From: Fistulifera solaris | Taxonomy: Eukaryota | NCBI GenBank assembly: GCA_030295235.1 | Contig: AP026126.1 | Coordinates: 744,001 to 808,000, forward strand | DNA length: 64,000 bases | Reading direction: 5' to 3' | In this document: piece after piece, positions 1-56,900 of the stretch | How the letters are laid out: each line of letters opens with the position of its first letter | Numbering within the stretch: the stretch's first letter is position 1 | The notes under the pieces: generated by a model | Told to the model about the DNA's origin: nothing | Seen by the model: the letters and a program-made list of their open reading frames with translations, nothing else | Databases searched by the model: none | Program-made: the position numbers and the translations under genes

Positions 1-165
1 ACAGATTACACGTTTTTTGCAGCGTCAGCCGCGCATTGTTCGACGGATGACGAAGGAGTTTGGACGGATTTTTCGAAAAGTTCTACTTCCGAACCGGAAG
101 GCCCCAAAAATGTAATTTTACCGCCGTATCCGAATGTCAGAGGCCGCATCCTAGAGACGGTCCCC

Positions 166-3100
166 ATGAGACAACTTACGGGAAAACACAAACGAAAAGA
201 AGAAATGATTCAAAAACAACTAGCTCATCGCAAGCGATCCAGCTCCGAACCTCCTCCCCTAGAAAGAACAGAATGTGAGAATGATTGCACGTGCACCGAT
301 GTATCGAACCGGAGGCTTTCCACTCCTTCACCGTTTTTCAGCCGACTGGCCAAAGTAAAGCATATGCAACAAGAGTTACGCGAGCAGCAACGGCTTACGC
401 ACTTAAACGGTCCGGTTCCGGAAAACAAAAACGGTGAAATAAGTAGTAGCCCAACAACGAACGACAATGACCCAAGTGCCGACACGATCAAAAAAGAAAC
501 TGCCCCCACCGAGCACGGAAAAGACGAAAACCGGGATATTCGACTCAACATTGTGAAACGACGAGGCGGGTCGCTTTTGAAATCTTCAAACAATGAAGGG
601 AGACAGATTGCGGACCATGATCCATCCAAGACAAAAGACGCGAATGGTCCTGTTGCGACAAAATCCATACCGCTGGCAAAGTTGCGGGAACACCGCCGCC
701 GGAAATTGGGCATAGTGACGGCTACGCCGAATGAATTCAATCAAGATAATATGCCAACCAACTCACAAAGCTCCGATAGTCTTGGTTCTTTAATAACAGC
801 ATCCACGGCCGTTCTTGAGTCTGCCGGGGTACCGAAGTTAGGAAAAGCTTCTTGGCAAAGTTCAGAAAGTCTTGGTTCTTTGGAGACCGCATCATTGCCA
901 TTATCCGCATCTGAACTTGGCGTGATCACCTACAATTCCGTTGCCCACCAAAACAGAAGAAAGAATGCAATCATTTCTCATTTGGATAGTAACATTACGG
1001 ATCCTGACTCCGATTCTAAGGATTACATCGTGTCAAACACTTCAAGTCAAGCATCCGAGAGTCTTGGTTCGCTAGAGACGGCAAGTACGCCGTCCACGGA
1101 AAGGGGCGAGATCACCTACAGCACCAGTACCGACATCGATGGCGATCGTGGTGGTCTCGATTCGGCAACCGAGACGACTAACTCGTATCCCACTTGGAGT
1201 AGTGAGAGTCAAACGCAGGAAATGCCCGGATTCGAAAAGTGGGCTACGTTCGAGAACAATGGTACCAATTCTGGTTCGTCCAGCAGTGCACATTCCAGCC
1301 ATGGGCCTTACGGAAAAAGCACATCCTCCGAGACGGATATTTTTAATCGCATAGGGGATCAATCATTTGAGGTATCTGAAAAGATGATACCGCTTCGAAA
1401 AGACGAGCAGATAGATTTGGAAGGAGAAACAGGTAATGACAACGCTGAATTGACTGGCCGTATTCTTGATGAGGATACAAAAGCCCCTCTTGCCTTATCT
1501 GCCCAAGGACCAGGAAAGAGTTTTGATTTTCGGGAAATCGAAGACACTGAAAATGTTTTTGTCGATCCATCATGGGATGCGTTCAAAGTGTACTTCAATG
1601 AGTTTGACGATGCGAAGAAAAATAACGGGGATGATATGTTTGGAATCCACAATGATGACTGGATCTCAACATCCCGAGGATTGTTTTCATTGCCTGTACA
1701 AGCGACAGAATGTGATCTCGATAGCGATGCAATGTTTCCTCGTCGACAACAAGTTGAAGAAGAGAAGAAAGACCGAGATTCTGTCTCTGTCGAACAAGCA
1801 TTGGAGATCGGACTGGTAAATTCCGACTCAAAATTTGTCGATCTCAGATGGTCTATTGTGAATGAGTGTACAGGTCATAGCACGGTTAGTGCTGGACCTC
1901 TGTCCAAAGAATCGGAAGCTGACCATGCTAACCTCCTTGATGATTCTTCAAGTGGTTGTGGGTCTTCCCGTGACAGCAGCAATTGTCTTCCGAAAAAAAA
2001 GGAAGAACGAATTCGCGAGTACAATACACTTGAAGTAGACGAAGAATCAAGCGAGGATGATAGTGGGAGCGAACAAACCGAGCAAGACGATTATCTTCCC
2101 AATTACGTCCCACAAGCTAACCCCACAGATGACGACATTTTGTCGTCGAGTGAAGACGAGGATTTGGGTGAAGATTTTAAGACCACGGAAGGATTGCAAA
2201 AAGCAACAAGCGACCAAAGTGACGTCTTCGATTTCGCTAGCGACATTCCTGGAAGTAATTCTCGTTTTCTATCCGACGAAAACCCAAATACGGCACACCC
2301 GTTGTCAGGTGTTGCTCAGCTTGCCCTCAATGTTTCAAATAATATTGATCAACCTCTGACGTCTTTGGAGGAAAGAGAGTCACTTGTCAAGCCATTATCT
2401 ATCCCTCTGGTCTCGATCCCTGTTCCTCCGCCACCACCACCCTCTCCCCGTACATCAACGCCGAAGAAAGCCCGACGCTCGTCAAAAGTGTCCAACATAA
2501 TTCCACGTATCGCTCCACCACCGTTCGAACGGATGAAGAAATGGGAAGAGGAAAAGGCTCGACCCATTGAGCATCTCAAGAAACTACAGTCGAGAAACTT
2601 GCTTCCTCCACCCCCGCCTCCGCCTCCACCGCCAAAATCTCTTTTCATCGGGGACGACCAAAGCGAAGTTCAGACAAGAAGCAAGCTGTCGAATCCAAGG
2701 GAGATTGTGCTTTGTCTTCTACAATCATTAGCAACGTAAGGATGGCTGAAAAAGTGGATACTGCCATCAGTGTTGCATCTTCGAAATTCGAAGAACAAAT
2801 TTCTGGTGAAGGTTTCGCCAACACTTTTTATACTAACGGCCGCCACTTAGAATCACTGTCCCAGCGTTCATTTGGAAATAGTAAGAGTCGACTATCTACT
2901 GCCGCCGACGGCGAAGGGCTTGACCACTTTGACTTTCGTCGGCAGAATGATCATCTAAAGAGTGAACGCAGTCCATTCAATGAAGCAATTATTAAAGTTC
3001 CTGCTTTGCTTTCGAAAGTCTTGGAGTTTCTCGGAGATCCCGTGGCTGTGTGTAGGGTAAAGATGCTAAACCGTGGGTGCAGAGAGTACGTTGAAAGAAG

Positions 3101-4379
3101 CGAGCATTTGCTGATGCGTGAAGCGGTTCGTTTGGGAGGGATGAGTATGCAGGTGCGTCCGGCATTTTGGTTGTGGGTTACGCTAGAAAAGATGGATTCC
3201 GCTGCAAACAATCGTGACGCAGCGTGTGTAGAGGAGCTTGAGAGGCAAGGAAGGGAAGGAAAATGGCACAGTGTTATTGAGAGAGACGTGGCTAGGGCTT
3301 TCGGAAATCTTCCTCCTCATAAAAGTGGAGCTCGACTACGTACTGATTCCATTGTTCGTGCGCTTGTTTCATGGGGACGAGGTCGGATGATTAAAAGAGG
3401 AGTAAAAGGAGACGGCGAAGCTCCTCCCCATCTAACGACTTCAAATTCATATGATTCCGATGTAACACCAACAGACACAGTAAGTGACTGGGGTGCTGTT
3501 GCTCCCGCATCGAGTACTGCGAGCGAATTAGACGAGTCTCTGAGATTCAAACAAAACAATGAAATTCTCTCAAAGCATGACGACGGAAGAGGTGAGCTTG
3601 CTCTAAGTGGAAGTGTTTTACGAGATGACCTTAAAGTTGAGCTGCGAGGAAAGTTACGCTTTGTCCTGCACGCCCTCGCCGCATCGCATCCCGATGTAGG
3701 CTACTGCCAAGGTATGGATTACGTTGTAGCTCACCTACTGCGAATTTTGCAAGAAACCATTCGTTGGAAGGCAGCGGTAGGTACACTACCGGAAATTATC
3801 GAATCGGCACCACAATCTATTGGCATCGATGGCCTCTCGCAAGAAGCATTGGCGAAGCAATATTGTAAGATCGACCAGACTTTCGTTGTCGAAGAGACGC
3901 TGTTTCACGTAATGGAATCGTTCTTCGGCACGTACAATTTGCGCCATTTCTATTACCCCGAGCTACGTTGCTTAAAAACATGCTGTCGTGTTTTTGAACG
4001 ATTGATTCAATTGAAACTGCCCGTGCTGGCCGACCACTTTGAACACCATGAGTTGAATGTTGGACTTTTCGCCCTTGGTTGGTTCCAAACACTGTTTCTC
4101 TACCTACCTTCTATGCCATCAGCCACCGTTTGTCATATGTGGGACATCTGGCTAGTCGAGCGAAGCTTTAAAATATTCTTTCGTGTGGGCACTGCCATTC
4201 TTTTCTTGAGTCAACCGATCTTGCTGAACCACGAGTTAGAGGGTATGATGAGTTACCTGAACACTTTTCCTGATGCAACACTCCTGAGCCCCGATATCTT
4301 AATCGCTTGCGCTCTCCAAATCAAGGTCACAAATAAGCTGCTGATGGAGTTGGAGAGAGAAGTGATTCGCACCATGTAA
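166..4379 (+). CDS. Rab-GAP TBC-domain protein with long disordered N-terminus (ORFs 166..2739 and 2712..4379 joined by a probable frameshift)
   Basis: TBC motifs IERDVARAF, GYCQGMDYV and a C-terminal WFxTLF...WD block. The N-terminal part is Ser/Asp/Pro-rich low complexity. The two ORFs overlap in different frames. Start uncertain (166 or 206). Confidence 0.8.
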
Positions 4380-9265: not shown

Positions 9266-12200
9266 TTAAAGAATCATGCTACCGCATTGGATTTCTAGCA
9301 AGTTGTCGAAAATCAAATCGACTGTCGATCCTATCGATGCTGCAAGATCTTCTTGTTCAGCCACAGGTAGATCAACAAATCGAATAACCAAATCCCCATC
9401 AATAACACTCTTCTTCCGGTAATTGCTTCTGCATCCACCTCTGCGAGGTGTTCGCCGGTAGAGTCTCCAACCTCGAGGGTTCAATGCACAATCAGCGTCC
9501 AGGGCGTTCGCCATGACTGACTGCAAAGCTGTCAAGCGCCAAAAAGGGCTCACTAATCGGCACAATGGCAGCCATTGTGCCGTCCGTGGTACCATAGTGA
9601 ACTGCGAGGCGCTGGTCATCGTCCGAACGACCGAAAAACGTATCTTGTTGCTTCAGTGCAGCCCTCGAGCTGATCGGTGTGGCGCTGTGAATGATAAGGC
9701 TCGACCGGCATTGATGAGACTTGAAACAAGTTGTCTGATGGCCGACATGACAGTCTGCTCTGCAAACAAGCTTGTTACCACCACGAGCAGCTGCCTCTCC
9801 TGGTGCGTATTGGACAAACGTTAGATTCTGCCTATCATCGTGACACACTATTGTCTTCGAGAAAGAACAGAAAGTTAGAAGATGACGGAAAACGAAAGCA
9901 CATACACTGGTGCTTACCATATTAGGTCCTCGAGACATTAGACCGGCAGCGTATACTGGAATTGGATCGTAGTCCTTCGCTAGAAGCGTCAGACTTTTGT
10001 CAGATTCCCTCCATACAAGAAAATAAAGAGAATCGTAAGCGTCACTCAACAGAAAGAAATTTTTGAAAAGTTGAATATTTGACACCTCCATTGTTGCCCG
10101 AAAGAAGCCCACCTGCGTCAAGCGATCATTGCCCCATTGCTCAATGTTAATATCAGCTCCGGCACCAACAACTAATCGATTTTTCCCATCGATAGAAAGG
10201 CACTCCAAAGTGGTGACAGGACCGTGAAATACTTCTTTTTTCATAGCGAAGCTTCAACTCCGCTACATCGTCAAGCTTCTTGGTCACCGTAAAGAGAAGC
10301 GCTCGGCCCTTTGAGCTGACGTCCTCACCGTTGTGATTTACGATACCAGTTCCAACAGCGATGAACATTGCGCTCTCGAAATCAGTTTCTTCTTCTAGCT
10401 CAGCACTAGCGCTACCCGGCTCCACCTTCATGTCAGATAACGACATAACTTTCAATGTCATTCCATGTTCGTATTCGCCTAATTGAAAGGAATCAATGAC
10501 TGTCCAACCTTTTGCAGCGTCTACAAGCCACAAAGAATATGCGGAATTTCGAACCGGTGGTGCTCCTCCGAGATCGAGATCGATATCAAAACAATTTTCT
10601 CGATCAATTTCCTCAACCCATTCGCTGTGTATATCGAAGCCACCGAGATCCGCTTCAACCTGTTTTTGTATCATCGCTTGTTCCTTTTCCTCTTCCAATG
10701 CTATCCTTTCTTCAGCTGCCAAAGTGTCGGTATTCCATTCACTTTGATCGGCTTCAAATTCTTTCGAAACTAATACTGCGTAGAGAGGATGTGACCCCCT
10801 TGAGATGGACGGGTCGTCGATGAATTCAATGTGGCGAATAGTTACTCCCATTGGAACCTTCTCAATAAAAGTTCCACAACCAGATATAATGCTTGGATTT
10901 TCAAATCCACTTGAAAGGCCTCGAAACAAAGTGATTCTCTGACTGCCTACTTTTCCAACACGTTCATGCAAGGTCACGAACCCTGCATCGTGAGAGGATT
11001 CTGAAAAAAATCCCGCGCAGTAAGCCCGAAGCGGTTTATCAGTGCCACCCGCGGGAGCTGCATGTCTCGTGCGGTGCAATACGTAGGATGGCGCCCCCCT
11101 TTCAGCAATAATCCACATGGGTCGGTAACCCGCAATAAAACAGCCATCTTGGCCAGATAGCTTTGTCACACGATGAAGGGCGTTTGTTGAAAAAGTCGGA
11201 ATATCACTCTCTCCTTGGCTAGAACAAACTTTCTTCCTAGAAAGTTTCGCATTATGACGATCTTGTTCTTTACTTCGACGCCCCGCGACACCCAGATCAA
11301 CCTTATGAAAAGATGTGGGATGACCAGAAAGTTCATTTTTTGATTGTTGGTAAACGATTACATCGCCAGCTGTTGTTTCGACAGCAAGACACATAGTGCG
11401 GCTCAAGGAATTTTCATCGATGTTTGACGCACCCATAAGGAAAAATCTCAGTTCTTTAACACAAACCAATGTCATTGAAGGAAGTCGGTGTTCCCCTGGT
11501 AAATCAAACTTGAGACAGTCAGTTCCCAGCCCGCAGCCGAAACTTTGCCAGCAGAGTCGAAGCTTTCCTCGGTCAGCTGCATAAACCTCCAACGCACTTG
11601 ACTGTCTACAAATCGCAACGAATAAATTCTCCTCAGTACTCACAGACTCGCCGCATGACACGTCCCGTGCGTTTCTAAGAGATTCCGCCGCTCTCGATTT
11701 GGCCGAATAAAGAAGCTCATCTTCTTCATCTATTATGGACCATTGGTTTTCAAAATCATGCAAAGAGCTTCTCTTTATTTCAGTTTGTCCCATGCCTTTT
11801 CCTGTGAGTTCAAAGCTGGAGGGAAACGTCGAAGACGGAGCTACGAAGACATCCAGCCCAACAATTGTAGTACTGGCATAGAATTCTTTTCGACGAGTCT
11901 CCTCTGGATCATCGTCGTCCATGTCCATTGGCACTGCAGTTGATGAATCACTTGTAGTTTTACCAACGTCTAATATTGATGTAATGCCATTTTTGTTGCA
12001 CACAACAACAGTTGCCTCACCGGATGTCCACAGGCAGCCAAAGGTGAGAGTTTGTTCATCGCCGTGACTCTGCTGTACAAACGGTGTCAAGCTAGATATT
12101 GAGCATTCAACCTGCATGTCGATGAAGCTTTCGTTGCGAAAGCGAAAGGACTTGTCGAAAATTAGCAAACGTAGTCTAGCTTCGTCGCTCTGTTTGACGC

Positions 12201-14224
12201 ATACGGCAAAATGTCCATCGGTGAACTCGCCAGTCCCAAGTACTGTTGACTCAAACACTATCCCGCCATCTAATAATCCATTGGGATCGACCTCACAAAA
12301 ATCAAACAGGTCCTCGTCACTTTCGTGGGAGGAAACCTTTAGCACTGTCGTCCCGCCTCCGCCGCGAGGTGAAACTCCAAGGAACAGATAACCCGCAGTG
12401 GGTGCACTGAACATCGACACAACATCAACACAATCGTGCTCAGAAATAATCATTCTATCATCGCGACCAAAAACTGTGGCTACAGCTAAGCCTCCACTTG
12501 ATCCGTAACCACATGGAAAAATATGGGCAGTTGCACCGAAAATGCTGTCGGGACTTTGTGTGGTGGTATCAAGACTCTCTAGTAAAAAATCTGGTGCTTT
12601 TGATTGTGGTCCAATGCATGATGGGCCCAAAGGACCGAGGTTGACAATCATGTCGAGCGGCGTCAAAGCTCTGACAAGCGTGATGCTTATCAATCTGGGT
12701 TTTTTCCTAGGATTAGCCGAAATATCATTTTCCTCATCTTCATTGTCACTGGGTTGAATCAGATGAGGCTCCGAATCACCCTTAGAAACAGGAGCGTATA
12801 ACGCTTCTTCTTCAAGCCTCAAAAGACGCTCGTATTCCGGATCCGTCGCATCGTTCTCTAGGTTGCTGTCATTGTTTTCTTCCGATTTGATAGACAAACT
12901 GGCGTGCAGTTCCTGCTTGATGCTCTTCATGGTGAGACTTTTCGTTTCCAACGCGTAACCAAGAAGAAACGAGTCACCTAAGCGGCTTCCAGCAAACACG
13001 ATCCCTAAAGAAAACTCCGATGACTCGGCAGATGGTTGCATCTTGCGTAGTAATTCTTTGGCCGCGCCTTCCATCGGCAAAGAGGTCAACAAAGTGACCT
13101 CACCAACAGTGCCGAGCGACTGACCCAACGGTAACAACGTCCATGCATCCACCGCATATTGCAGAATATACAAATGGCCCGCTCGCAACGATAGAATCGC
13201 CGTCGTACTCGAAATTGCGGTTAAGCAGGAACCGTCTAATTGCAATGACAGCTTGAGTAGAGGATTGGGAGCGATAGCTGACATGAGACTTGCTGGACAC
13301 GTCGATCTTGCCCACCCATTGACTGCCATTACTTGGTTTACACTACCAATGCAATCTAAAAACACCAGAGTATTCGCGCCGACTACCACCAAAGCATCGC
13401 CGATGAATTCTACGTAGAGCGCATCGTTTGGGACGGGACGACACCATAAAACAGCTGCACGATTGTGTACTACGCTGACCGATAATGCGGTCAAGTAAAG
13501 AGGTGTTGCACCTCCTTGTCCCTTTTCACGTCCCAAACGGCCACTCCAAATTTTCCCAGCAGGATCGGAGTGCAACAGTACGAGCGTCGCTTCTAAAAAA
13601 GCCCGATAAGAATTTTACCCCCAGTATATCACCAAAGCCAGTTGTAGCCGTACTCGCGGGTGTATCTACCATATATGGTAGTGAGGAGCGCGACAGCGTC
13701 GCTAGTGGTAGCACATAAGGATCAGTCACATACCAAGATCCTGCTTGACTATGAATTTCCATAAGCGCAACGGCAATGCCTCCTCCCATGTTACAGGCTA
13801 CCGTCATAGGTTTCTGATTTTGAACAGACACCATCATATCCTCTTCAACACAAGCTCCGTGACTGTATTGTGTCAAGAGAGTCGTTAAATCCACTAAACT
13901 TTCCGCTCGGAGCCGACCATCCTGAATGGTGAGCACCGTCAATCGCGGAGGACCAGCAAAGCCCACCAACAAGGCGTCCTTTTTCACACCACTTAACGTG
14001 GTCAGAAATATAATTTCACCCGCTAGATTTCCAAAGAAATATTCAAAGCGCAAGGTACCGTCGGGAGTGACGCTGTAAACGTGCAGGGTGCTCGCGGATG
14101 CCGTGACAAGATTGGGGACATCGTGGCTGGTAATGTGAGCCCATGTAGCGAATTCGGCGCCCCGTGATCCTTTTGTCAGTGAGAGAATACACGGATGTAC
14201 GGGACGAGATGCTGGAGCTGACAT
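9266..14224 (-). CDS. CPSF1: Cleavage and polyadenylation specificity factor 160 kDa subunit (frameshifts; intron about 9855..9917)
   Basis: Motifs FAGSRLGDSFLL, NLGP, IAVGTG...GEDVSSKGR, LLAKDY, GGNKLVCRADCHVG, LNPRGWR, IDGDLV; ~1600 aa beta-propeller architecture. Confidence 0.92.
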
Positions 14225-14540
14225 TTTTATTATATCATAAATATTGATTAAAGAAGAGATACTACCTGGAACAGCTTTGTGTTGATTGGTGATCCACCGC
14301 CAAAGCTTTTCGGTCTCTGCAAGTACCGTACGTAGAACGTTGTACAGTACCTGTACAAGTACAAAGCATCTCTACCAAGTATCCGCGGCCCGATTATCCG
14401 CAAGCCGCGAGGTGCAAAGCTTTGTAAATTTACTCTCTATCAAAGTGTAGGCGAAATATTACAGTACGACCTCAACCGTTACCCAATAACGGGACTGAAT
14501 GTATGCTGAGTCGGAAGAATATTCTCCATAGCAAGAAAGC

Positions 14541-23632: not shown

Positions 23633-25434
23633 CTAATTAGCTCTCGCGTCTACCGCTTCTTCAACACCAGTGGTTATCAATCTCTCTCCTTCATTTTCCT
23701 CCTCATCGCTATCCTGAGCATCGTCGCCTTCCGGAATTTGGTATTCCATTGCTATGTCCCAACGAGAGCTAGGAGCTCGTCTACTGACGTATTTGACAAA
23801 ACGCATTGTCCCCGTGTCTCGCAAGACAAGTGACAAAGTGTTATTGTGAGCTGAAACACTCAATAGTTCACTACCATCTTCGTCAGCTGGATTGTATTCC
23901 TCGTCAACTCCCTCTTCTTCGTCTGCTTCGATGTAGCACTCGAAACCCCCAACATTGCCCGACTCCCATGATTCATCTTCTTCGTTCTCAATTGGACTTT
24001 CGACATGATTGTTGTTTCCTTCCACGGCTGTTGGTGTCGTGTTATGCACCGGACTATTCACCACAAAACACATTGTGGCATCCAGCACAGGAGGTTCATC
24101 TTGTCCCAACAACAAGCCATGGTGTGCTACTGTATAATCAAGTCCAGGACGGAATCGTCGCGCTTTACCTCGGTACGCGGTGGGCGGTGGCAAATTGGTC
24201 ACAGCAGCCAGCCAGCGTCCAAATTGTGGCGACTGCAGCACTTCCGATCGTAATTGGGATAACTTGGACCCTACCGTATCTTTAGAATCGGGTCCAGCAA
24301 TGCATTCAAGATAGCGTTGCTTGTGAGGAGGCCCCACCAATTTCCACTCCTCTGTTACGCCCCTGGAGTATGAAGAAGATTTCAAAGCCGCATCTTCGGC
24401 TTTGAGTTCTTCTGCGAAGGAATCACATCCGACCGGAAAAAGTTCTGAAGTTGGACTGCGGACTCGTCTTGAAAAGCATCATTAATCTGTTTGATCTCGG
24501 AAGGTTGAATGTAAGTCGCATCAAGGAACTTTGCTAGGTAGTCGAGATCAACTTTCGTTAAAGAGGCATCAGCTGACGTTTCAACGTCAGTACTTTCGGC
24601 CAAAGACTCGTACGGCCCGTCTCCTGTACTGTCATCATCGTCCTCTCCTTTGACCTGTTTCAACATTTGCAGAGTAGGCATGTGATGATGGTCCATTTGC
24701 GAAGGATCTTTGTAATGATACCAACCCTGCAAACTCAATCTGGGTCTCGATCCAAATACTTCTTGTACGGCATGAAAGGAAACTCCTGGTTCTACTTTGA
24801 ACATTGCTAGATGGTTCCTCAACGGTCTATGAACCTTGGAGGGTATCGCATCGGGTATTTTCTTGGATTCTCCTTCTTTCGACGGATAAAGCTCCAAAGC
24901 CCCGCCTTCATTTTCCGTCCAATCTTCTTCGGTTAAATACAAGATATAGGAAAGACATCGTGTGGTGATGACATCGTCATGACACAACAAGTGACATCCG
25001 GTCGTATGGCAATTGCAAGCACAATCCACCCTATCAGCCAACGTATCGCGCGGCAAATCGGCCACATCTTCCATGAATTGACGCCATTCAGCACTGTAGA
25101 GTAGATCGCGCAACTGCAGAACCGGTCCACTCGACTTTAGGTTGGCCAAATCAATGGATTGATAGAACTTGAACAAATCGCTTTCTTTGAATGTCATGGA
25201 AGAATTCTGCTTGATTTCCTCAACAACTGAATCCAAAAAGACCGTATCGAACAGATGGGGCAAGATGACGTGAGGGTACGGCGTGTTAGACGTATATTCC
25301 GTAGCGAATGTGTTGCGTTGTGATAGGATGGTAGCCGAAATCGGGGCGAGAGGATCTTCTGTTTTCGCTTTCTTCGGTGCTGGCTTGGCTGGGGCTTCGA
25401 CCGCTGGTTCCGATGATGATTCTTGGTTCGTCAT
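23633..25434 (-). CDS. OGFOD1: Prolyl 3,4-dihydroxylase TPA1/OGFOD1 (frameshift near 24400)
   Basis: LLCHDD, SYILYL, GGALEL, SFHAVQEV, RLSLQGW; C-terminal GPPHKQRY, RRFRPGLDYT, NTLSLVLRD. Confidence 0.92.
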
Positions 25435-25867
25435 TTTTGAAGTAGCAAATACCTTAACTTGTTCAGAAAGAGTTTACAGTAATTTCAATCGTAATGCGGA
25501 GGTAACAACGAAAAGATTTTTTCTTTGTTGTTGGTTCGGATCGGCCGCGAAAAAATTGGATGGCTCGTGACAAACGGGACCATGGAGTCATGGGATGGAC
25601 GTCAGTAGATTTCCGTCTGGAAAAAGATGACGCGGTCGTATTAGGGACAATCTGTCCTAATAGAAAACGTCATCTCATAATTTGTGTAATTTTAACGCCT
25701 TCGCTTGTCCTTGCGGTGTTCCTTTCGCTCTGTCGAAGATGCTGCGACGCGAACCTTCTCTCTGCCTTCGAGCAGCGGATCTTCCCTTTTTGCATTCTTT
25801 CCTCGGCATTTCATTTTGGCTTTCGCGGTGACCTTTATCAAAGTTCTCAACAATACAGTTCATCAAT

Positions 25868-44100: not shown

Positions 44101-44346
44101 AGTTACTTTAACCCTAACCGGAACAATCTTTAATTGATTTTTGGTTTTTGAAAAATAAATGCAATCCGTGTCCTATCGTTAAGTAAAATCCGTAAAATTC
44201 TGTATGGGCAATGGGGACCGATCGTCAAGGCAAAATTTCATAAGCGGACGAGGCCCTTGGACGAGGCGAGAAAAAAAGCCCCGGAATACAAAAAAGCAAA
44301 TTATTGCTTTGCTCATTCGGACGATCCATCAAACATTGAGTCTCAA

Positions 44347-46570
44347 ATGTCGACATTCTCTATCTTACGCTCTTCTTTGCGCTCGCAGCTCCACCGTAGT
44401 GGGATTAGAGCTGCAGCGGGGGTAAGCATACAGCAGCAGATCCTTTCGTCGCAGCGATTGATGGTGACCCATCATCGTTCCTTTTCATCACCACCGGCCG
44501 AGTCACATGAGTTTCAAACGGAAACTCGTCAATTGCTGGATATTGTGACTCATTCCTTGTATACGGATAAGGAAGTCTTTCTGAGAGAATTGGTATCAAA
44601 TGCGAGTGATTCGTTGGAAAAGTTGCGTCATATGCAAGCGACCGGCATGGCGATTGTCGATCCTGACGTGCCACTCGAAATTCGAATCGAGTTGGATGAA
44701 GTGACGAGTACTATCACCATTACAGAAACGGGCATTGGTCTCACTCGGGAGGAGATGATTTCTAACTTAGGAACCATTGCCCGATCGGGGTCGAAAAACT
44801 TTGTGCAGCAATTGCAGCAAGCAGCAACGACGGGAGTCGATCCATCAAAAGGAATCATTGGACGATTCGGTGTAGGATTTTACAGTGCATTTATGGTAGG
44901 ATCCAAAGTCGACGTTCGATCCAAGTCGGCGCTAGCGGAAAATGAAAGCTTGTCACCGAAAGTGTGGACATCAGAAGGGACTGGCACCTACGAAATTACG
45001 GATCTGGATGACGGAGTACGACAAAATCGAGGCTCTTCCATTGTCATTCATTTGAAAGAAGATTACTGGGACTTTATCAACGAAAGTCGCATCGAGAAGA
45101 TCCTTAAGCGATATTCAAACTTCGTGGGCTTTCCAATCTATTTAAATGGAAATCGTGTCAACACTTTGGACGCTATTTGGACCAAGGATCCGAAAGAAGT
45201 CGAGCATGATGCGTACGTTGATTTTTATAAGTACATTGCCAACGCGGTGGACGATCCGTTGGATGTATATGTAAGTCGCATTGCGTTGCTTTCGACAAAT
45301 CATTGTGCTTTTCGATGCTGACCGCACTTTGTAGCATTTCCGAGCCGATGCCCCAATTGATGTGAAAGCCCTTTTCTTCATTCCATCGTTCCATTCAGAG
45401 AAATATGGCATGGGTCGAATGGAACCGGGTGTTTCTCTTTACAGTCGAAAAATCTTGATCGAGTCGAAAAGTCCAGATATATTGCCCGAATGGTTGCGAT
45501 TTGTCAAGGGAGTTGTCGACTCGGAGGATTTACCTTTGGCTATTTCTAGAGAAAAAGCTCAGGACTCAAACCTTATTGCCAAACTGAAACGAGTCTTGAC
45601 TCGAAAGTTCATAGCCCATCTCTCTAAAATGGTCAAAGATGACAAGGATAAGTTCATTGACGAATTCTACCGCGAGTATTCCTTCTTTCTCAAAGAAGGC
45701 ATCTGTCAAGATTACGAGTTTCAACAACCATTGGCAAAGTTGATGTATTTTGAAACGTCTAGAAATACAGGCAAGGATCTCATCTCACTTGATGAATACA
45801 TAAGTCGCATGCAACCCGAACAAAAGGACATATATTACATCGTTTCTCCTACGCGCGAAGCTGCATTGAACAGTCCCTATCTCGAAGCCTTTGACAAGGC
45901 CGGTGTTGAAGTGCTGTTTTTGTTTACTGCCATCGATGACTTTGTGATGGCTAACCTGGATCAGTACGAAAGTCGAAAACTCGTTTCCGTCGAAAAAGGA
46001 GACATTGATCTGAGTGCCTTGAAGAAAGGGGACGACAACGAAGATGATGACGAATCGTCCAGTATCTATAAATCAGACCGCGAGCTGTCCCCCACAGAAC
46101 TGATTGAGTTTTGCCATTGGTTCAAGATGGAAGTCGGTGAAAGCAAAGTAGCATCATGCACCGCTACCAATCGACTATCAACGTCTCCAGCAATCGTCAC
46201 AGACAACGAGTCGGGTGCAATGCGACGCATGATGAGACTTGTGGACACGAGCGAAGGGAATAGGGATGGCATCCCGCTGCCCAAACAAAATGTCGAGATC
46301 AATCCAAAACACCCAGTTATCGTTGGCATTTATGACTTGAAAGATAAAGAACCCACATTGGCTCGAGTACTTGCCGAACAAGTATACGACAACTGCTTGG
46401 TGGCTGCCGGTCTTTTAGACGACAGTCGGTCGATGCTACCCCGCATCAATGATTTGTTAGTGTGTGTCGTCAATGGCGCCAAATCACAAGGCGGACACAA
46501 AGCTGATTCTTCTAGCAGTGAGAGCGATAGCGACAACGAAAGCAAATCCGCCGAAGGAAAGAAAGAGTGA
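44347..46570 (+). CDS. TRAP1: Mitochondrial HSP90 (TRAP1/HSP75); intron 45271..45334
   Basis: EFQTET, SLYTDKEVFLRELVSNASD, NLGTIARSGS, IGRFGVGFYSAFMV, GVVDSEDLPL, EINPKHP; Arg/Ser-rich presequence; no MEEVD. Confidence 0.95.
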
Positions 46571-47623
46571 TTCTAGAGAAAAGTAGAGTTTTAAGAGTAA
46601 TGTAATTAGGTCCTCATTTAGCTAGTGTTTACATACGCGTAAGATCGTTTCTAATCGCTTCCTGTCGAATCAGAGGCTTGTCTATCCACTGCAAACTCGT
46701 CTATAAGAACGATTCTTCTTCAAGCCCTCGGGTGCATTCATGAAAAGGAAAATGACGACGATGTAGCGCTTGTGCTAGACGAGAGGACCGATCTCGGAGA
46801 TTTAAAAAATGATCCAGATGATCCGGTCGAGTTTCGTGGGGCCGAAGGGACTGCAGGTAGCACCCACTCGTCGAATTCTAAATTCGAGCATAAAGCAGGT
46901 GGTTTTTGAGAATGATCCTTGCGATTCGTTGCAACAGTTAGAAATATTGAGGATTTTCTTCGAGCATCATCCGTGTGGTTATGTGCTGCTTCGTCCTTCG
47001 TCTTCATGTTTGTGTGTTTGAAAGAATCACATTGGGTGCATTAAGGCCTGTGTGAAGCAACGAGGTCGTTTCTATTGCATGAAGAAAGGTGTGCTAACGA
47101 GATGCAGATTATCAGGTACGGGCGTCTTTGCTCGCAAACAAAACTCAACGCATCATGGTCGCGCCGCGTCGTGGCATCACGGAAACAGGCGACATTTCCC
47201 TTCAAGACAGGATTTCAGTCACGAGACGAAACTGCCTTTTACTCACATTTGATTTTCCTCTCATCTGCAAGCGTAAAACTTGTCTTCTGAAGAAGTATTA
47301 TTTTGGTATTGACTTGTATTGTGTGATACTCTCTTGCATTTGCAAGCCGTTGCTCGGTCATCATTGTCGAGAAATGACATTATTCCTTAAACGGTATCGC
47401 CAATCGCCAATCGCCACGCTAAGGACGGCGTTAACCAGAGTTAGTCCTTAACCTTACAGGTGGTCTCAATTTTTGCATCTGCCCGGAATTCCCAAGAACA
47501 CACCGCATCGTCAGAATTTCGGTTCACTTCCTCTCCATTCCGTTTTCGTTCAATTTTATTATGAACAAGAAGTAGTCGGTCGTAAACCCAAATTCTTGTG
47601 CAAAAGGAGCATCATTATTGAAA

Positions 47624-48970: not shown

Positions 48971-50867
48971 CTAAAGCAGCCCTTGTCTGGCAAGATCCTC
49001 GTAGGCAGTCCTCGACAATATGTTTCCGTGGGAATCCTCGAACTGCTCTTCTTGTGCTCCGTCGAATTGGCTCTGATTTAATTTAGCACCAAGATTTTCC
49101 CAAAGTCTCTTTGCATCATCTATGTTGGTGACACCGTGAAAATGCTTAGTATTTGGTATTCCCAGGCTTTTTCATTCCCGCAGCGTGTCGCTGCTCAGCA
49201 AAATGGAGCTCAAAGTTGCGTCGTCCTCGATAACTTTCTCCGCCGCAAATCTCACATGGATAGTAATGATTCAATCCATGTAATTTGAAGAGCCAGTAGG
49301 CGATCGGTTTGCCATCCCAGTCGAGAGGGACGTTCTTGGGATTGTAGATTGGAGCATCATCATCAGAGTCACCATCATCGTTAGCACTCGTTCCTGATTT
49401 TTTCGTCGCGTCGGTTGGAACCCCGTAGAGATCTTCCTGGATTTCTCGTTCACGCTCTGCCAACGTTTGCGTCATTTGTCGCTCACATCGTCGAATGGAT
49501 GCATCCAAAATGGGTCGCAACTGGTCAAGAAGAGCTTGAACGATGACTTCTTGCCGAGCAATGTCAATACGATGCATGGAAGAAGACGATGCATTTGACT
49601 TTTTCGCGAATAGCGAGGGTGGAAGCTCTTCTAGCTTCTTTTCTCGTAGCATGAATAATCGCTTGGCCCGGTCGAGTGTAGTACCGCCACACTTCAGACC
49701 TAGTCGTGACAGCTCCAGCTTTAACTTGTCACCGTCAACGGCTTCTGCTAGTTCCTCCGGAGTCGAAAACTGGGAGAGGTCCAAGCTAGATGACGTCGTT
49801 CCGCTGGTACTGTCTTCCGCTAATGCAGCTTCGATCGGTTTGCACGACCAGACCGCTGGTACACCTCCTTTCTCCCTCCAAATGTTGTGTAACTTTTTCA
49901 GCGCTTCCAACTCAATGTCTTTGGCGTCGATCAGAGGAGCCGTTCGGTTCAGAAAGGATTGAAGATAAGTCTGCAAAGACGTCAAAAAGCGAACATACTT
50001 TTTTCGATTGGATAACTTCGCATGTTCGTCCAGTGGAAAGGCCTGACTGCCAGTATTGTCCAACCCATTGGCAAGAATTTGCAAAAATCGATATATTGTC
50101 CTAATTTTGCCCCCGCTCCAGAAAAAAAGACCATCTTGTTGAGTCTGAATGTAAACCGCATGGAGATCCAAGTACTTTCCCAGTACTTCGTCGGGCGAAA
50201 ACAAGGATTCTTCATTTTGGAGGGCCACTAAACGCTGCTGAATTGTAGCGGAAAGATCGTATCCATCCGCGGCCGGATTTCCCCATCGCCGGCGTTTGTG
50301 AGGTCGTGAGTCGTCTTCCATAACGTTCGAAGGCTGATGCCGGGCATGATAGACTCGCAAAGCCTGCAAGCGTTCATCCAATAATTTGAGCCATAAGTTT
50401 GGATCTTTGGGTTGTGAATTCAAAATAGACCAGGCTTTCTGTAGCGCAGCACCTTCCAAAAGTCGATTTTCCGTCATATGCTGAGCCTGTTCCGCCATTT
50501 GTTGAACAGTCAGAGCTTGAACGGTTCGATGAACGGTGGTGGCCCATTGTCCTCCTCCTGTTGGGTCGCTTTGAGGAGGTAGAGAAGCAATCCCTTCTTC
50601 GGTTATATCCACAATAGTCGAGAGCGCGTCTTGTACACCTCCTGTGGTGATAAGTTCACTTCCCGGATCGAGGGCTTTGATCAGACCCAGCGGTACTTTG
50701 AGAAGAGATGAACCTAGGACCGTCCAAGCTTCCATTTCGGATTCGTTACATCTCGCTTTCTCTAAAATACGCGTTGCTTGGGCCATTGCCTGTCGCTGAA
50801 TTTCTTCCGGGTTGTCGATGACATTGGTGCTGTCTTCTGCGGCATTATCATCGATTGTCGTCGCCAT
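48971..50867 (-). CDS. SF3A3: Splicing factor 3A subunit 3 (Prp9), frameshift near 49170
   Basis: GKYLDLH, GLKCGGT..RAKRLF, IYNPKNVPLDWDGKPIAYWLFKLHGL, CEICG...FAEQRH; the shifted frame ends YEDLARQGLL*. Confidence 0.95.
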
Positions 50868-51429
50868 GTGGGCTCAGTACTTAAGTTGTTGATCAAGTAG
50901 TCTGTTAAAGGTTTGATTTGAAACGAAATAGTCCATGTCATCATGGTCGGGAAAGCATCGACCTATGAATCTCCCGTTCTGAAAACGTACCACGGAAGGA
51001 CGAGCTCTATCTCTAATAGCTTAGAATCAATTACGGATTAGGATCAGTCCGCTTGCGTCATGCGTCAGTGCATGTGTAAAAAGTAAAAACCGCCAATGTC
51101 TGTGCATCGCACCAACTTGAAGTCCTCTTCACCGTGCGTGCAGTATCCAACGACCCCCCGCGACATCCGTCATCAACGACCGCGCTCAAACATTTTGCAA
51201 CATTTGCATTCTCTTTTGTCGAATGAAAACAGATCGTTTGGGAACCAACCCTTTCCATTAGTTTCTACCACGTTTTCTCTTTTTGCAAAGGAGGACTGTA
51301 TTGCATTACCTTCGTCTATCAGTCGGCAATAGCTACTTTTTCGAGTGTTTTCCTTCTCCTCCGAAAGACGTGTCGAAGTTACTTTTACTAATGTTATCAT
51401 CATTAATCACCAAACGAATTAGAATCATC

Positions 51430-53889
51430 ATGAAGTTCAACGTGGCGGTCATTCTACTCTCGCTGCAGGCGACTTCCGCTTTCATGTCCGGGGAACGAGT
51501 GAATCGCGTTTCGGTGATGCAACGAAGTATGGCGGTCGACAAAGAAGTTGACTTGTCGATCCCGTACGATGCGGCTGCGCGGTTGGCTTACGACGAATGG
51601 CGCCAGCAATTCAACAAAGGAGCTTTCGACGAGAAGCGATTTGTGTCTTTTAAAGCGAACTACGAGGCTGTGACAGTAGCCAATGTTGTGGCCAAGAAGG
51701 AGGCTCGTGAAAGTGGCTCGGACGAACCGCTCGCTCTGATGACGCTCAACGAGTACGGTGATTTTACTGAGGAAGAATTCTCTCAATTGTCGTCGGGATC
51801 TGCTTCGACGACAGGAAAAGTGCTGGAGAAAGCTTTGGAAGTGGCTCAATCGCAGTCAGAAGCTAGTTCAGCTTTGGAAGAAGCAGCCAATGCTCTGGCG
51901 GCTGAAGAAGAGGTAGGTAGTAAATGCGTGTTCGGATGTGACGCAACGAATGGAATGTTCTGATGTTTTCAAATTATGTGTTACCCCTACCAATACAGGA
52001 ACTTGCTGCCAAACTCGGATTGAACAGTGTCGACGAGCTGGAAGCTGCTCTTGACTCGCTCGAAGGCATCGCCGAAGATGGAGGAGCAATTGATGACAAC
52101 CTGGCTCGTGAAGCGCGCGTGCGATCGGCTTATATGAAATGGTGTAAAGAGTTCGGAAAAGAGCAAAGTGAGGAGCGCTTTCAAAAGTTCTCGGAGAACT
52201 ACTTGATGATGGAAGACTATGCAAAGCAGTCCGGAAAGGAGATGAACTTGAATGAGTATGCCGATTGCACAAAGGAAGAATACGAGGCCATCGTTTTGGA
52301 GGAGGCCAAAAACGAGTCGCCGAGAAGGAGAAACAAGCCGCGGAAGCGAAAGCAGCGCGCGACAAAGCCGAGGCCGAGGCAGGTGCAGCACGAAAACAGG
52401 CTGCCGCCGCTTCCGATGCGAACGTTTCCATTCCCAACGTTGTTATGGGTAAGGATGACGATGATACAGAACTTGTCAGAGCTCAGAGACAGGCAAGATT
52501 TGAGGAGAATCAAAAGAAAGCTCAAGCTGAAATTAAGGCCCGAGAAAAAGCTGAGGCTGAGCGACGCGCTCAAATCGAGAAAGAACGCGCTGATCGACAG
52601 AAGGCTCAGGAAGCGCAAAAGCAAAAGGCTGCAGCTGAAGCTGCGTCTGTAGCAATCGCCGCAGCAAAAGCTGCTCAGGACGCCGAGGCGGTCCGCCAAG
52701 CGGAACGTCGTCGAATTGAAAAGGAAGCTGCGGATCTTGTTCGAGCGAAGGCAAGAGAAGCTGAAGCGAAACTAGCTAAGGCAGCCTCGAAAAAAACCTC
52801 GGTAACCGAAACACCGAAGAAGGTCAAAGCCCCCGCTTTTTTCTTTCTTTGCAAAGAAGGAGGAGGTCAAGACAACCCGTGCTCCTCCTGCCTTTAAACT
52901 CCCCCTTGTATCGGCCCCTGCTCCGGCACCAGCACCGGCAAAGAAAGAAAACGCCATGTTTTCATTCTTGTCCACTCCGGCAGAAAAGCCAAAGTCTTCG
53001 CCCACTCCTACGCCCGTAAAGAAAGCTAATGTACCTCCGAAGAAGGAAGAAAAATCTATTCTTTCTATTTTCTCCGCTCCTGCAAAAGAAGCCGCACCCA
53101 CTCCGTCCCCTGCCCCCGTAGCAAAGAAGGAAGAAGCCAAGCCACTTCTTTCTTTCCTTTCGTCTCCTTCACCTGCTAAGGCTCCAGTACCCGCGCCAAA
53201 GAAAGATGTACCCGTACCTAACAAACCAGGTACACTCAGCTTGTTTTCGGCAAAGAAACCCGAGGTTTCCAAGCCTCTGGCTCCGAAAAAGGATATCAAA
53301 GTTCCCAACAAAAGCGGAACTATCAATCTTTTGGCGGTGTACCCTCAAAGCCGAAACCAGCGCCGGCGCCCGTGGCAAAAAAGTCTCCCACTATCAGTCT
53401 CTTTGGCAGTCCGTCAAAAGCAAAACCTCAGTCTGAACCGGTAAGCGATCAAAACCTAAATCCAATACAGCTCCGACGTTTAGTCTTTTTTGGAAGTGCT
53501 GCCAAGTCTCAACCGAAGCCTGCACCTCCCGCTCCGGTTAAAAAAGGCAGCGCCTACAATCAGTTTGTTTGGCGGAAAGAAAAAGTTGAATCAACCCCTG
53601 TACAAGCACCACCTGTCCCTGTTAAAGGCAGTCCCTCCTTTTCTCTTTTCGGTGGAAATAGTAAGCCAGCAGCCAAAACAACCCCCGAATTAAAGGTTGC
53701 TAAGGCTCCCCCTGGGGTCCCAACTCTTTCACGCTGGACGGTCAACCGAGATGGATCTGTCACCGGAAATATTAGCAACTCAAAGAACTTCCGCAACGGT
53801 GAAAAGATCACTACATCTCCTATCAAGGGAAAGCGCAACCAGGATCTGTGGTTTCAACAGGATCTGGTAGCAAATACTTTCTGTCTTAA
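51430..53889 (+). CDS. Plastid-targeted multidomain protein: 2x I29-like, coiled coil, Pro/Lys repeat linker, C-terminal Shell/PyShell-like beta domain; intron 51913..51998; several frameshifts
   Basis: MKFNVAVILLSLQATSAF; LNEYGDFTEEEF and LNEYADCTKEEY; repeated TISLFG/SFSLFG; terminal GVPTLSRWTVNRDGSVTGNISNS...ITTSPI...VVSTGSGSKYFLS*. Confidence 0.75.
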
Positions 53890-53925
53890 TTATACTAACA
53901 TTCTTATCCATGATTCGTAAGTATT

Positions 53926-56900
53926 TTATGTCATCCGTGATAAATGGCGAAGTAAGCACAGCGAATGTTGCATCTGTGATCGAATCACAAGTGAGGCCTC
54001 TTGCTGTGACTTTTTCAATTGGCCGATTAATTGTAGTAGAACATCATACTGCTTAACAATGACTTCCTCTTTCATGTGAGAATTGTCGTTCACGTCATCT
54101 CTGTTGTACGTATCTAGCTGAGCGATTACCTCAGTATGCACATGTAGGAAGCGGTGGATGTATGCATTCACGGCCTCACAGCGTTCTCTGGACTGGGATG
54201 CTTCTAGTAGCCATTGTGCAGCGAGAGTCAGTAATTGCAGTCCTTCGTCTAGATCGTGCATCCCATTGCAAAGGGACGATAAGGCCAGGTCAATAGCGGA
54301 TGGTCCACATGTCGCAATGTAGTCTGACACATGTTGAAAGCTGCCTTTTATGCTACATTCCTGGAGGAGTGACGCCAACTGGGATCTGTAATGAGTCACC
54401 TTCTTGCGTTTATTAGAATCTGGCGCTTTAGAGCTTTCTTTGTCTGTAGGTGCACCAATCTCTTGTCCTTCGCCATCGTCGGTCCATGCCGAGGCCCAAG
54501 TATCTTCCGCCTCTTTTCCAGTATCTCCTTGAATTTGTTCACTTGCAGGTGGTGCTATGTCGATTGCTTCCCCACCACGCCACTGAAGAAAGAAAGGTGC
54601 TGAAGGAGGCTTTTGGGAGGCTCTTTGGGTTTATTTCTCTCTTTTACCAACTCGAGATGAAACAAGTTTTTCCAGTGAGCAGGTGGAAGACCGGAAAGTG
54701 TTATGAGACCCTTTTCCTTCGCCGATACTGGCCCAGCTTCTTGATCTTCGATGGTCTCTGCTTCGTCGGCTGGTAGTGAGATATTTGAATCATCTGCAGC
54801 TACGATAATTCCAGTCTCCTCTGAAATCGGAGTCGGTTCGTCCATGAGAAAAGGTTTATCCAAGGCCAGTCCACTCGTATTGACGCGCTGATAGTAGCTA
54901 CGGTCGCTCCACACGCTGATGCCTACTTTTCCGTCGTGAGTTGTTGCTATATACTCGCCTGTTGGGCTTACAGTCAGAGAAGTCGGAGCAGCCTTGAAAC
55001 CCAACCAATCAATGCACATGGCTGTAGGGACATCGTAAACACGAACCGTGCCGTCCAATGAAGATGTATACATGATGCGGCCATCAGGGCTAAAGTCGAG
55101 GTCACTGACAGGACCACTGTGCTTTGCAAACCGTCTCACTACAGAGAGGGCAGTACAATCGAACAGCACTACGCTCATATCTTCCATTGCAATTGCAGCT
55201 AGATCCGAATCGCGGACATGCGCCAGTTTTGTGGCAGGACTGGGTAAAATGAAAGGGCTTTTGGTGTGCGGAGCGTGTGTGGCGAAATTCCATAGAGTAA
55301 GTTTCGAGTCGGACCCAACGGAAATGACTGTTTTGTTAACCGAGTCGACTGCTAAGCCAGTCACAGCAAAACCAATGTGCGCAGCCTGTTTAGTCTTCTC
55401 TTGAATGTATTTCTCGCGCTTTAACTCATTCTCCAGATCTTTTCGGCGCTTGTCGAGATTCGCCGAGCCTCGATGATTCCCTTTCATTTCTTTTTGCATT
55501 ACTCTCATCGTACGATTGATATCTCCGGATATGAATTTCTTTCGCGTCGGACCCACAGCTTCCTTTTCGGCAGGATAGCTCCCACGCGGTAAACCACTTT
55601 GGATGTTGTACTTGTAAATTGTTCCACCCCGGGTACCGACTAGAACCATGTTGCCACAAGAAGATATCGCGACAGCAGTGGCATGACATTCTGGAGGAGG
55701 AGCCTTTTTCCGTGCACTAATGTTCCACTCGGGCTGTCGCAACAATGGGCCTGACTGCGCTCCTCGTCGAGTACTCCACACATACGCGAAAGCATGATTC
55801 TTGTGAATGGTGACAAGATCACCCCAATCTCTTCGTCGTGCTTCGCCAAGAGCCATTGCTGTGATCGGGGGCAACAATAAGTCAACTTCGCTGTCCAAGC
55901 CAAGTGTACGAGCTTTCTTTTCAAGCCCAGCGCCTTGACTGTATTCTTTATCCAACACGCTCCTTGCTGTTGAAAAGACGCGCAAGGTACGGTCTGGCCC
56001 TCCAGAAGACAGAAGCTGACAAGATCGGGCGTCCGTTCCGTCGACAGAATTTGCAGTAATTCCATTACCGTACAAATAGTTAATGCGACAAGGAGGTCCG
56101 GTATGCCCACGTCGTTTACGCAAAAGTCTTCCCGAATGGCCCGGGTTATCAAATATATGCATAAGAACAGCATTCGATTGGGTGCCCGATGAAATGAGGA
56201 GGGGCTCCTGAGGCATGTACTGCAACTTCGCCACTCCTCCAGGCGAATGTACACGATCCAAAGTGCACAAAATTGTTCTACCAGCATTTGGTTCTTCTGG
56301 TGGCGTTAAGTCCCAAATAGTGATGCTTCCGTCGGATCGACCTACCGCCATGGGGGCGATGCCATAGTTGACTGCGGATGCGTCGTCGCGAAAGGATACT
56401 GAAGTGATGGTGACTGTTTTCGAATCATGCCCAAAATGGCTCAGCGAAAAAGGACTTTATCATGACGTAAATTAACCAAATGAACCAGTCCTTGATCGGT
56501 ACCGACAGCGATAGTATCGATGGCGGGCGACTGTTGAAGGGTCGTGATGGAGCGACATTTCGTATTTCGGATACAAACAAATTCGTGAATGACCTTTTTC
56601 GAACGTATATTGAGCAAAAGCATCGCACTACGTCCATTCTGTGAACCACCGACCAGAATTTTGTTGACGTAAGTTGACGGGTGCGTAGCAACGACCGGAA
56701 TAAATGCTTCCGGGAGCTGAACCCGACGATCAACGCGGAGAGTGGTTCGCGTTGCAATCAAGACCACAACCTGTCCCGCTAAAGTCCGACCGTCCTCACC
56801 GACAATAGAATCATCATCACTGCTACTACTGCTGTTTGTATCACGCACGTTATCTTGACGTTTGCAGTTCGACAAGATTGCGACAATAATGGCAGCATTC

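Follow-up and report, generated by a model that had tools for sequence, protein, structure and literature searches.

A diatom gene family joining I29-type domains, repeated hydrophobic motifs and a C-terminal beta domain: a candidate multivalent plastid scaffold in Fistulifera solaris

An intact gene behind broken reading frames

We examined a 64,000-nucleotide stretch of the genome of the diatom Fistulifera solaris (assembly GCA_030295235.1, contig AP026126.1, positions 744,001 to 808,000 of the forward strand; hereafter the window) and, within it, a single gene whose product combines a plastid-type presequence, two I29-type domains, a long helix, a basic disordered region with ten short hydrophobic motifs, and a C-terminal beta domain (Table 1)—a layout that may belong to a multivalent scaffold or adaptor acting inside the plastid. 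An initial annotation, made from the letters of the DNA, had proposed one gene with frameshifts in need of correction, and the elements that it listed are all present where it placed them. In the raw window sequence, the reading frame is a chain of five or six overlapping stop-to-stop open reading frame (ORF) pieces that occupy three frames of the plus strand between 51262 and 53920, interrupted by one GT..AG intron and eight single-base shifts (at 52307, 52837, 53328, 53450, 53486, 53540, 53579, and 53824).

Table 1. Features of the gene and its neighbours (positions in the window; aa, amino acids)
Feature	Position	Strand	Basis or remark
Gene	51430..53889	+	One gene, one 86-nt intron
Start codon ATG	51430	+	Direct DNA reading
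Signal peptide, aa 1-18, ends ATSA with Phe at +1 (ASAFAP-type junction)	51430..51483	+	Direct reading
Transit-peptide-like stretch, aa 19-36, basic, Ser/Arg/Val-rich	51484..51537	+	Variable among orthologs
I29-type domain 1, ends LNEYGDFTEEEF	51592..51780	+	PF08246 E 1.3e-3, 19.4 bits, profile positions 2-59 of 59
Intron, 86 nt, GT..AG	51913..51998	+	Skipped in X2/X3 contigs
I29-type domain 2, ends LNEYADCTKEEY	52137..52283	+	PF08246 E 5.4e-5, 23.9 bits
Ala/Glu/Lys/Arg-rich region, mostly one long helix in ortholog model	52302..52825	+	Ala 27%, Lys 14%, Glu 12%, Arg 9%
Eight one-base assembly indels breaking the frame	52307..53824	+	Contigs of runs X1-X4; single ORF after edits
Basic Pro/Ala/Lys-rich disordered region, ten motifs	52826..53707	+	Pro 20%, Lys 16%, Ala 13%, Ser 12%; isoelectric point 10.3
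Five-stranded beta domain, about 56-60 aa	53708..53886	+	Translations; AlphaFold2 model of orthologous domain
Stop codon TAA	53887..53889	+	Direct DNA reading
Alpha/beta hydrolase gene	47576-48913	+	
SF3a60/Prp9 gene	49146-50873	-	
Utp21/WDR36 gene	53926-56456	-	Convergent with scaffold gene

Six public runs from three studies cover part of this stretch, none of them listed as RNA, and four, drawn from two studies, were compared over 51300-54000; X5 and X6, which cover small shares, were set aside. Runs X1-X3 come from one study, with a library kind that could only be guessed, and X4 is a wetland metagenome. At every one of the eight breaks, contigs from these runs gain or lose a single base, which repairs the frame; the initial annotation had advised a correction with reads or RNA-seq. 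The insertions at 53328 (+T), 53450 (+A), and 53824 (+A) recur in 4/4 runs, the last of these sites being the one that splits the C-terminal beta domain in the window; one base is removed at 52837 (X1 14/14, X4 12.9/12.9), at 53486 (X1 14/14, X3 4/8.7), and at 53540 (X1 14.5/26); and the remaining two sites are repaired by +A at 52307, or +G at 52309 in the other contig set, and by +A at 53579 or +G at 53584. In contigs of X2 and X3, 51910 is followed directly by 51997, a skip of 86 nt (the intron cut lies two places further right), while one X1 contig retains the intron. A spliced contig is what cDNA gives, and we therefore count the skipping in X2 and X3 as evidence of expression.

When the eight edits were applied by script and the intron removed, the gene became 2376 nt long, equivalent to 791 codons and a stop, without an internal stop. 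The corrected 791-aa protein aligns over aa 5-791 with an intact ortholog of 813 aa (P0026; 40.6% identity) and over aa 40-791 with an ortholog from Mayamaea (P0025), and in relatives both ends of the gene lie on a single transcript (P0012 and P0022, from MMETSP). Eight frame breaks in 2.4 kb of window sequence might, taken at face value, be real frameshifts in a decaying locus. We regard such a pseudogene as scarcely credible and reject it, because a one-base indel repairs each break in the contigs of runs X1-X4 (three of them in all four runs), intact orthologs are collinear with the single repaired ORF, and some contigs are spliced. The frame breaks are assembly indel errors, mostly at homopolymer runs, and the locus is an intact diatom nuclear gene that is expressed, as judged from spliced contigs of runs whose kind is guessed. 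This assembly, in other words, contains homopolymer indels that disrupt real genes.

Run X1 also yielded two sets of contigs over 52300-53780, accompanied by the alternative insertions at 52307/52309 and 53579/53584; two of its records (6 and 7, over 53506-53776) have 23 and 0 differing letters, respectively. These sets look like two alleles of a diploid, or else a close paralog.

A plastid-type presequence precedes paired I29-type domains

The protein opens with a presequence, MKFNVAVILLSLQATSA followed by Phe, that has an isoelectric point (pI) of 11.7. A small-x-small junction directly before this Phe, and a variable basic stretch after it, are common to the window protein and the full-length orthologs; the region of aa 19-36 shows no consensus in an alignment of 23 ortholog sequences (A4), and residues 1-49 of an AlphaFold2 model of full-length ortholog P0026, built with the same alignment, have a predicted local distance difference test (pLDDT) score below 50. 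An endoplasmic reticulum (ER) signal followed by an ASAFAP junction is the stramenopile plastid signal as outlined in part of the PyShell report (10.1101/2023.10.25.564039), and by sequence rules alone the protein is predicted to be imported into the plastid.

Two domains of I29 type (cathepsin propeptide inhibitor, PF08246, a family that includes Crammer/CTLA-2) follow, a likeness seen both in the sequence profile and in the fold. The window pieces were scored separately, and both fall just below the Pfam gathering cut-off of 24.4 bits; the profile is matched by 8/8 orthologs (best E 2e-11; 32 bits in P0012). In the model of P0026, these regions form two three-helix units, with pLDDT of 85-94 in domain 1 and 90-95 in domain 2. 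When this model was compared with known structures in Foldseek, rows 1-3 and 5-8 were papain-type proenzymes or propeptides at probabilities of 0.77-1.00, with E values of only 0.12-1.3, and the top matches comprised Triticain-alpha, TgCPL, Amb a 11, and cathepsins K, L, and H. For the Triticain-alpha proenzyme, the probability was 1.00 and the identity 34% over 68 columns; the propeptide of TgCPL reached TMt 0.67, and the free-standing inhibitor Crammer/CTLA-2 appeared at row 14. The I29 region is also the best-conserved part of the family, holding most of the invariant columns of A4 and of a second alignment, of eight orthologs (A1). Unlike the usual I29 domain, the pair has no C1 peptidase attached, and no peptidase family was matched by Pfam in the window pieces or in the eight orthologs; instead, the tandem domains are fused to a helix, a disordered tail, a beta domain, and a plastid presequence.

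A long helix and a regularly spaced motif region

Downstream of the I29 pair lies a region dominated by alanine and charged residues, where the ortholog model places a 107-residue helix (residues 314-420, pLDDT 79-90). Within 150 aa, this region contains 19 strong hydrophobic residues and 18 i/i+4 pairs of opposite charge, counts by which a coiled coil cannot be told from a single alpha-helix. The following ~295 aa, by our boundaries, are basic and predicted to be disordered, and the corresponding residues 421-750 of the P0026 model have pLDDT below 50 and no secondary structure. Within the corrected protein we counted ten motifs of the form [FILM][STN][FILM][FL], at aa 442, 482, 516, 545, 574, 603, 627, 656, 682, and 709; the median distance between them is 29 aa, and five of the ten end in LFG. 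In 500 shuffles of the protein, the same pattern occurred 0.4±0.7 times (maximum 3). The motifs are not peculiar to the window: 11/12 other members of the I29-type family in which they were counted have 6-11, the twelfth (P0037) having 2.

Up to this point of the protein, the initial annotation stands with small amendments. Its plastid presequence (ATSA-F) is a plastid-type bipartite signal with a junction conserved in orthologs; its two helical repeats are indeed of I29 type, by the profile matches in all eight orthologs and by the papain-like proenzymes and propeptides that head the Foldseek results; and the Ala/Glu/Lys stretch that it called a coiled coil is present and mostly helical in the ortholog model. 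Its description of ~330 aa of disorder with about nine motifs was right in kind and slightly off in measure, since the region is shorter and holds one more motif (AFSFFA). The sticker-and-spacer layout that it proposed is real and conserved.

The arrangement also recalls FG nucleoporins, in which short Phe motifs sit in hydrophilic, Ser/Thr/Asn/Gln-rich disordered spacers. The likeness lies in the Phe motifs themselves, half of which here end in LFG with SLFG-type examples among them. The present protein differs in its plastid presequence, in its Pro/Ala/Lys-rich spacer, and in that half of its motifs have no Gly, and nothing links it to the nuclear pore.

The C-terminal beta domain differs from PyShell in strand number and composition

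The protein ends in a compact domain that reads W..NRDGSVTG...ITTSPI in the window and continues, one frame over, as ...TGSGSKYFLS. To characterise it, we drew on relatives encoded in metagenomes: 201 matched stretches, of which 92 encode relatives, gave 80 retained loci, and a pattern search found the beta domain in 39 of these; 27 sequences (after 12 near-duplicates were dropped) were aligned together with the 50-aa piece of the window (A2, n = 28). An AlphaFold2 model of an orthologous C-terminal domain has five strands at pLDDT 88.4, and the protein terminates 1-2 residues past the last of them. Hydrophobic residues (AVILMFWC) account for 22-30% of positions across the 28 sequences, and for 23% in the window.

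The initial annotation had taken this domain for a Shell-like one, as in the pyrenoid shell proteins of diatoms, and had named a structural match to Shell as the check. The comparison did not bear this out. The PyShell monomer is described, in the part of the report that we draw on, as having 16 strands in two sheets, built from CR1 and CR2, with >50% hydrophobic residues (10.1101/2023.10.25.564039). PyShell was absent from 24 and 17 sequence matches to the PDB, from 50 Foldseek rows, and from 20 rows of a wide structure search with VIA, in libraries whose inclusion of TpPyShell1 is unconfirmed. What the present protein has in common with PyShell and Shell1-6 is that it is beta-rich, of diatom origin and predicted to be plastid-targeted, and that many relatives carry the beta domain twice in tandem (105 among the best 150, see below); it differs in having a single domain with 5 strands in ~56 aa and a far less hydrophobic composition. 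The Shell/PyShell assignment of this domain is not supported.

The best structural match, a weak one, is to the beta subdomain of SANTA in M18BP1/KNL2. In Foldseek against the PDB, the M18BP1 SANTA structure 9r6h ranked 1-2, at probabilities of 0.99/0.96, TMq 0.60/0.58, E values of 0.07/0.11, and 19-21% identity, and the match recurred when the full-length ortholog model was used; no row among the 50 reached E≤0.001. In the VIA search (20 rows), the RFTS domain of DNMT1 scored Z 3.6 and 9r6h scored Z 3.3 over 53 residues, with all rows below Z 5, a level that would reflect a common arrangement and from which we do not claim homology. Sequence comparisons gave no credible match: Pfam, SANTA (PF09133) included, matched 0/28 sequences at E≤1; 9r6h was absent from the domain-profile matches to the PDB at E≤10; and the 50-aa piece of the window gave only chance rows against the PDB (best E 0.055). 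The sole profile matches in the PDB, to the designed propellers 'Cake' and 'Scone', were rejected as a repeat artefact in which repeats of ~3 bits were summed on a 16-residue stretch.

As presented in part of the SANTA paper, that domain consists of a small beta domain with three helices after it, has related beta domains in phage proteins, and is proposed to target a motif within an extended flexible segment (PMC12953894). SANTA is nuclear and centromeric, whereas the present protein is predicted to be plastidial and ends after its last strand, where SANTA continues with helices. Among clusters in the ESM Atlas, the domain (L069:3008-3196) had a best score of 0.84, below the 0.9 lead level; the closest clusters, with scores of 0.79-0.84, are hypothetical proteins of 64-75 aa, mostly from tailed phages. 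A complex prediction between the C-terminal domain (A2) and the upstream motif segment (A3) scored 0.00 with controls not run, and speaks neither for nor against binding.

A modular family across diatoms

Ortholog searches, each limited to ~8000 scored candidates, recovered 19 proteins with the last 169-aa frame as query, among them intact proteins of 850-930 aa and the same layout from Entomoneis and Stephanocyclus; the profile of eight orthologs (A1) recovered 48, and a third search 28. All named members, both of the I29-type family and of the wider domain family, are diatoms: Entomoneis, two MMETSP strains, Mayamaea pseudoterrestris, Amphora coffeaeformis, Stephanocyclus meneghinianus, Cyclotella cryptica, Fistulifera solaris, Striatella unipunctata, Skeletonema marinoi, S. 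dohrnii, and Leptocylindrus danicus. In C. cryptica, the ortholog is HJC23_005635. The architecture is conserved in centric and pennate diatoms. No ortholog from Thalassiosira pseudonana or Phaeodactylum tricornutum surfaced among the candidates scored, which is no evidence of absence.

The beta domain itself extends well beyond proteins with I29-type domains. At E≤1e-3, its profile matched 1010 representative clusters, of which 667 also passed E≤1e-10 and 135 passed E≤1e-30; the counts of copies and motifs that follow refer to the best 150 of these, ranked by summed score. The domain is single in eight proteins, paired in 105, and present three to six times in 37 (142 thus carry 2-6 copies), and the last copy lies within 5 aa of the C-terminus in 125/150. 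The hydrophobic motif was found 254 times outside the domains, against 40±6 in shuffles, and stands upstream of 169/348 domains at a median distance of 29 aa. A Pfam scan of long members (61 of the 63 proteins of ≥515 aa, two being omitted for size) assigned no family to 55 at E≤1e-4, I29 to 4, and sub-threshold chance matches to 2. The beta domain is a large family without a Pfam entry, placed C-terminally on proteins with quite different N-terminal parts and often present in 2-7 copies. We found no paper on this family in the literature on diatom pyrenoid and PyShell proteins or on diatom I29 domains, a search in which supplementary candidate lists (the identities of DPC1-4) were uncompared.

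Several groups of relatives illustrate this modularity. A second diatom family (P0009, P0010, P0011, P0013, and P0016) has a plastid-type presequence, a helix, an xTISLFG motif, and the same C-terminal domain, and in 4/5 of its members (P0009, P0010, P0011, and P0016) the N-terminal region is annotated as SnoaL-like (PF14534); NTF2-like folds bind FG motifs in nuclear transport. Another group consists of repeated units of Ala/Glu/Lys helix, hydrophobic motif, and beta domain (P0065, with 1612 aa and 6 copies, P0066, P0069, and P0070), and from this repetition it follows that motif and domain travel together as a cassette. Lastly, in P0087 (808 aa) and P0096 (746 aa) the beta domain is repeated in six to seven divergent copies; both proteins also have a plastid-type presequence and a ~17-residue hydrophobic C-terminal tail, and they could be membrane-anchored multivalent tethers.

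A candidate multivalent scaffold in the plastid

How these parts might work together is best approached through the architecture as a whole. We favour, at even confidence, a reading in which the protein works inside the plastid, in whichever sub-compartment, as a multivalent scaffold or adaptor. The C-terminal beta domain would be a docking module, binding an extended motif by analogy with SANTA, and would gather all the proteins that carry it at a single shared partner or structure. Weak stickers, either cohesive or for a ligand, would be provided by the ten motifs, which the charged spacer would hold apart; the long helix would be a rigid spacer or an oligomeriser, and the I29 pair would be the end that is peculiar to this family, for cargo or as an adaptor. 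A modular sticker-and-spacer scaffold is already known as a type; the beta-domain family that this one carries has no Pfam entry, and no paper on it was found.

Several observations weigh against a scaffold of this kind. The match to SANTA is weak (E 0.07 in Foldseek, Z 3.3 in VIA with all rows below Z 5, Pfam 0/28), and the analogy with its peptide binding may be empty. The full-length ortholog model leaves the motif region unstructured and unpacked from the beta domain. An upstream motif accompanies only 169 of the 348 domains counted, and the summed-score ranking biases the best 150 toward multi-copy proteins. Import into the plastid is itself a prediction, and the names of the members offer no help, all being 'hypothetical protein' bar one UniRef entry, 'Cathepsin propeptide inhibitor d...'.

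Two other explanations give the weight to one end of the protein. The I29 pair, which is the best-conserved region of the family and whose sequence and fold matches include the free inhibitor Crammer/CTLA-2, might act on a papain-like cysteine protease as its inhibitor or chaperone, in which case the tail and beta domain would only position the pair. We consider such a tethered protease regulator improbable: there is no peptidase domain in the window protein or in eight orthologs; no plastid papain-like protease was found here, where none was sought; and the conserved motifs and the beta domain shared with other proteins would go unexplained. The Pfam I29 model, moreover, covers the helical part without the segment that occupies the active-site cleft. 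Alternatively, the N-terminus might be an ER signal peptide and nothing more, with the Lys/Pro/Ser-rich tail acting outside the plastid in a secretory or cell-wall (biosilica-associated) protein. A signal peptide together with a lysine- and proline-rich low-complexity region fits this idea, and such Lys/Pro-rich composition is known from diatom silica-associated proteins. It is nonetheless very unlikely, given that in the window and in the orthologs a Phe at +1 and a variable basic stretch precede the conserved mature start, which is the plastid bipartite signal as described in part of the PyShell report (10.1101/2023.10.25.564039), and that this junction recurs in other proteins with the beta domain.

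A narrower possibility within the plastid is that the protein is a component of the pyrenoid that links or tethers the Rubisco matrix, the shell, or the pyrenoid-penetrating thylakoid, its beta domain or motifs being Rubisco- or shell-binding stickers. The basic, disordered, multivalent region resembles the sticker-and-spacer layout of EPYC1 and PYCO1 with their repeated short motifs (in the parts of PMC10288592 and PMC13655443 that we cite), and its pI of 10.3 may be set beside the 10.03 of PYCO1 (PMC10288592). The family is conserved in both centric and pennate diatoms, and no Rubisco linker is known for T. pseudonana, or for centric diatoms, according to part of the study of Nam et al. (10.1101/2023.10.26.564148); in addition, the multi-copy relatives built of helix, motif, and domain resemble linkers that use folded domains as stickers, as presented in part of PMC10288592. 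Against this, the C-terminal domain does not fit PyShell in strand number or composition, and the protein bears no sequence relation to EPYC1 or PYCO1, from which it differs also by its folded domains and long helix. A motif scan of the window protein found no KWSP, WSP, or GTGYNP, and its motifs recur every ~29 aa, not at the about 60-80 aa of linker repeats (10.1101/2023.10.26.564148, PMC10288592; each cited in part). In the portion of Nam et al. that we cite, furthermore, none of their pyrenoid proteins has a repeat of ~60-aa frequency (10.1101/2023.10.26.564148), and T. pseudonana and P. tricornutum yielded no ortholog, a weak point with ~8000 candidates per search. We hold a pyrenoid role of this sort to be unlikely.

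Bolder still, motif and beta domain might together constitute a diatom-wide address-and-sticker system for one plastid condensate, equivalent in function to the Rubisco-binding motif that pyrenoid proteins of Chlamydomonas share. This idea is a long shot. If it were true, the multi-copy proteins of repeated helix, motif, and domain would be the missing matrix linkers of diatoms without PYCO1, the proteins that have 6-7 copies and a hydrophobic tail at the C-terminus would tether the matrix to a membrane, and the product of the present gene would bring the I29 pair into the network.

Diatoms fix roughly a fifth of global CO2, and the organising proteins of their plastid interior are mostly uncharacterised. 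The present gene offers a clean example of a conserved, uncharacterised family in diatoms, joining a sticker-and-spacer tail to a small beta domain found in more than a thousand protein clusters. Should the link to the pyrenoid fail, this domain family would still hint at a network of plastid proteins in diatoms that is as yet uncharted. Concrete constructs are at hand in the beta domain, the motif peptides, and the multi-copy relatives.

Neighbouring genes and other frames in the window

The genes that flank the scaffold gene—encoding an alpha/beta hydrolase, SF3a60/Prp9, and Utp21/WDR36—are ordinary nuclear genes and give no functional clue. Only ~37 bp separate the stop codon of the scaffold gene from the end of the convergent Utp21 ORF (53887-53926), and the 3' untranslated regions of the two genes must therefore overlap. 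Utp21/WDR36 is itself spread over two ORFs that overlap in different frames (54555..56456 and 53926..54630), with the Pfam Utp21 profile matched at positions 5-46 in the first and continuing at 36-208 in the second; near 54600 there is either a short intron or a further assembly indel. Two further one-base indels lie beyond the stop of the scaffold gene, at 53892 and 53896, and with at least 10 such differences from other runs' contigs in 2.7 kb, frames elsewhere in the window are also suspect. Same-strand ORFs in different frames, overlapping or adjoining one another, are found at 1..2739/2571..4379, 9492..10253/10153..13614/13526..14371, 23633..24478/24382..25473, and 44152..45321/45335..46570.

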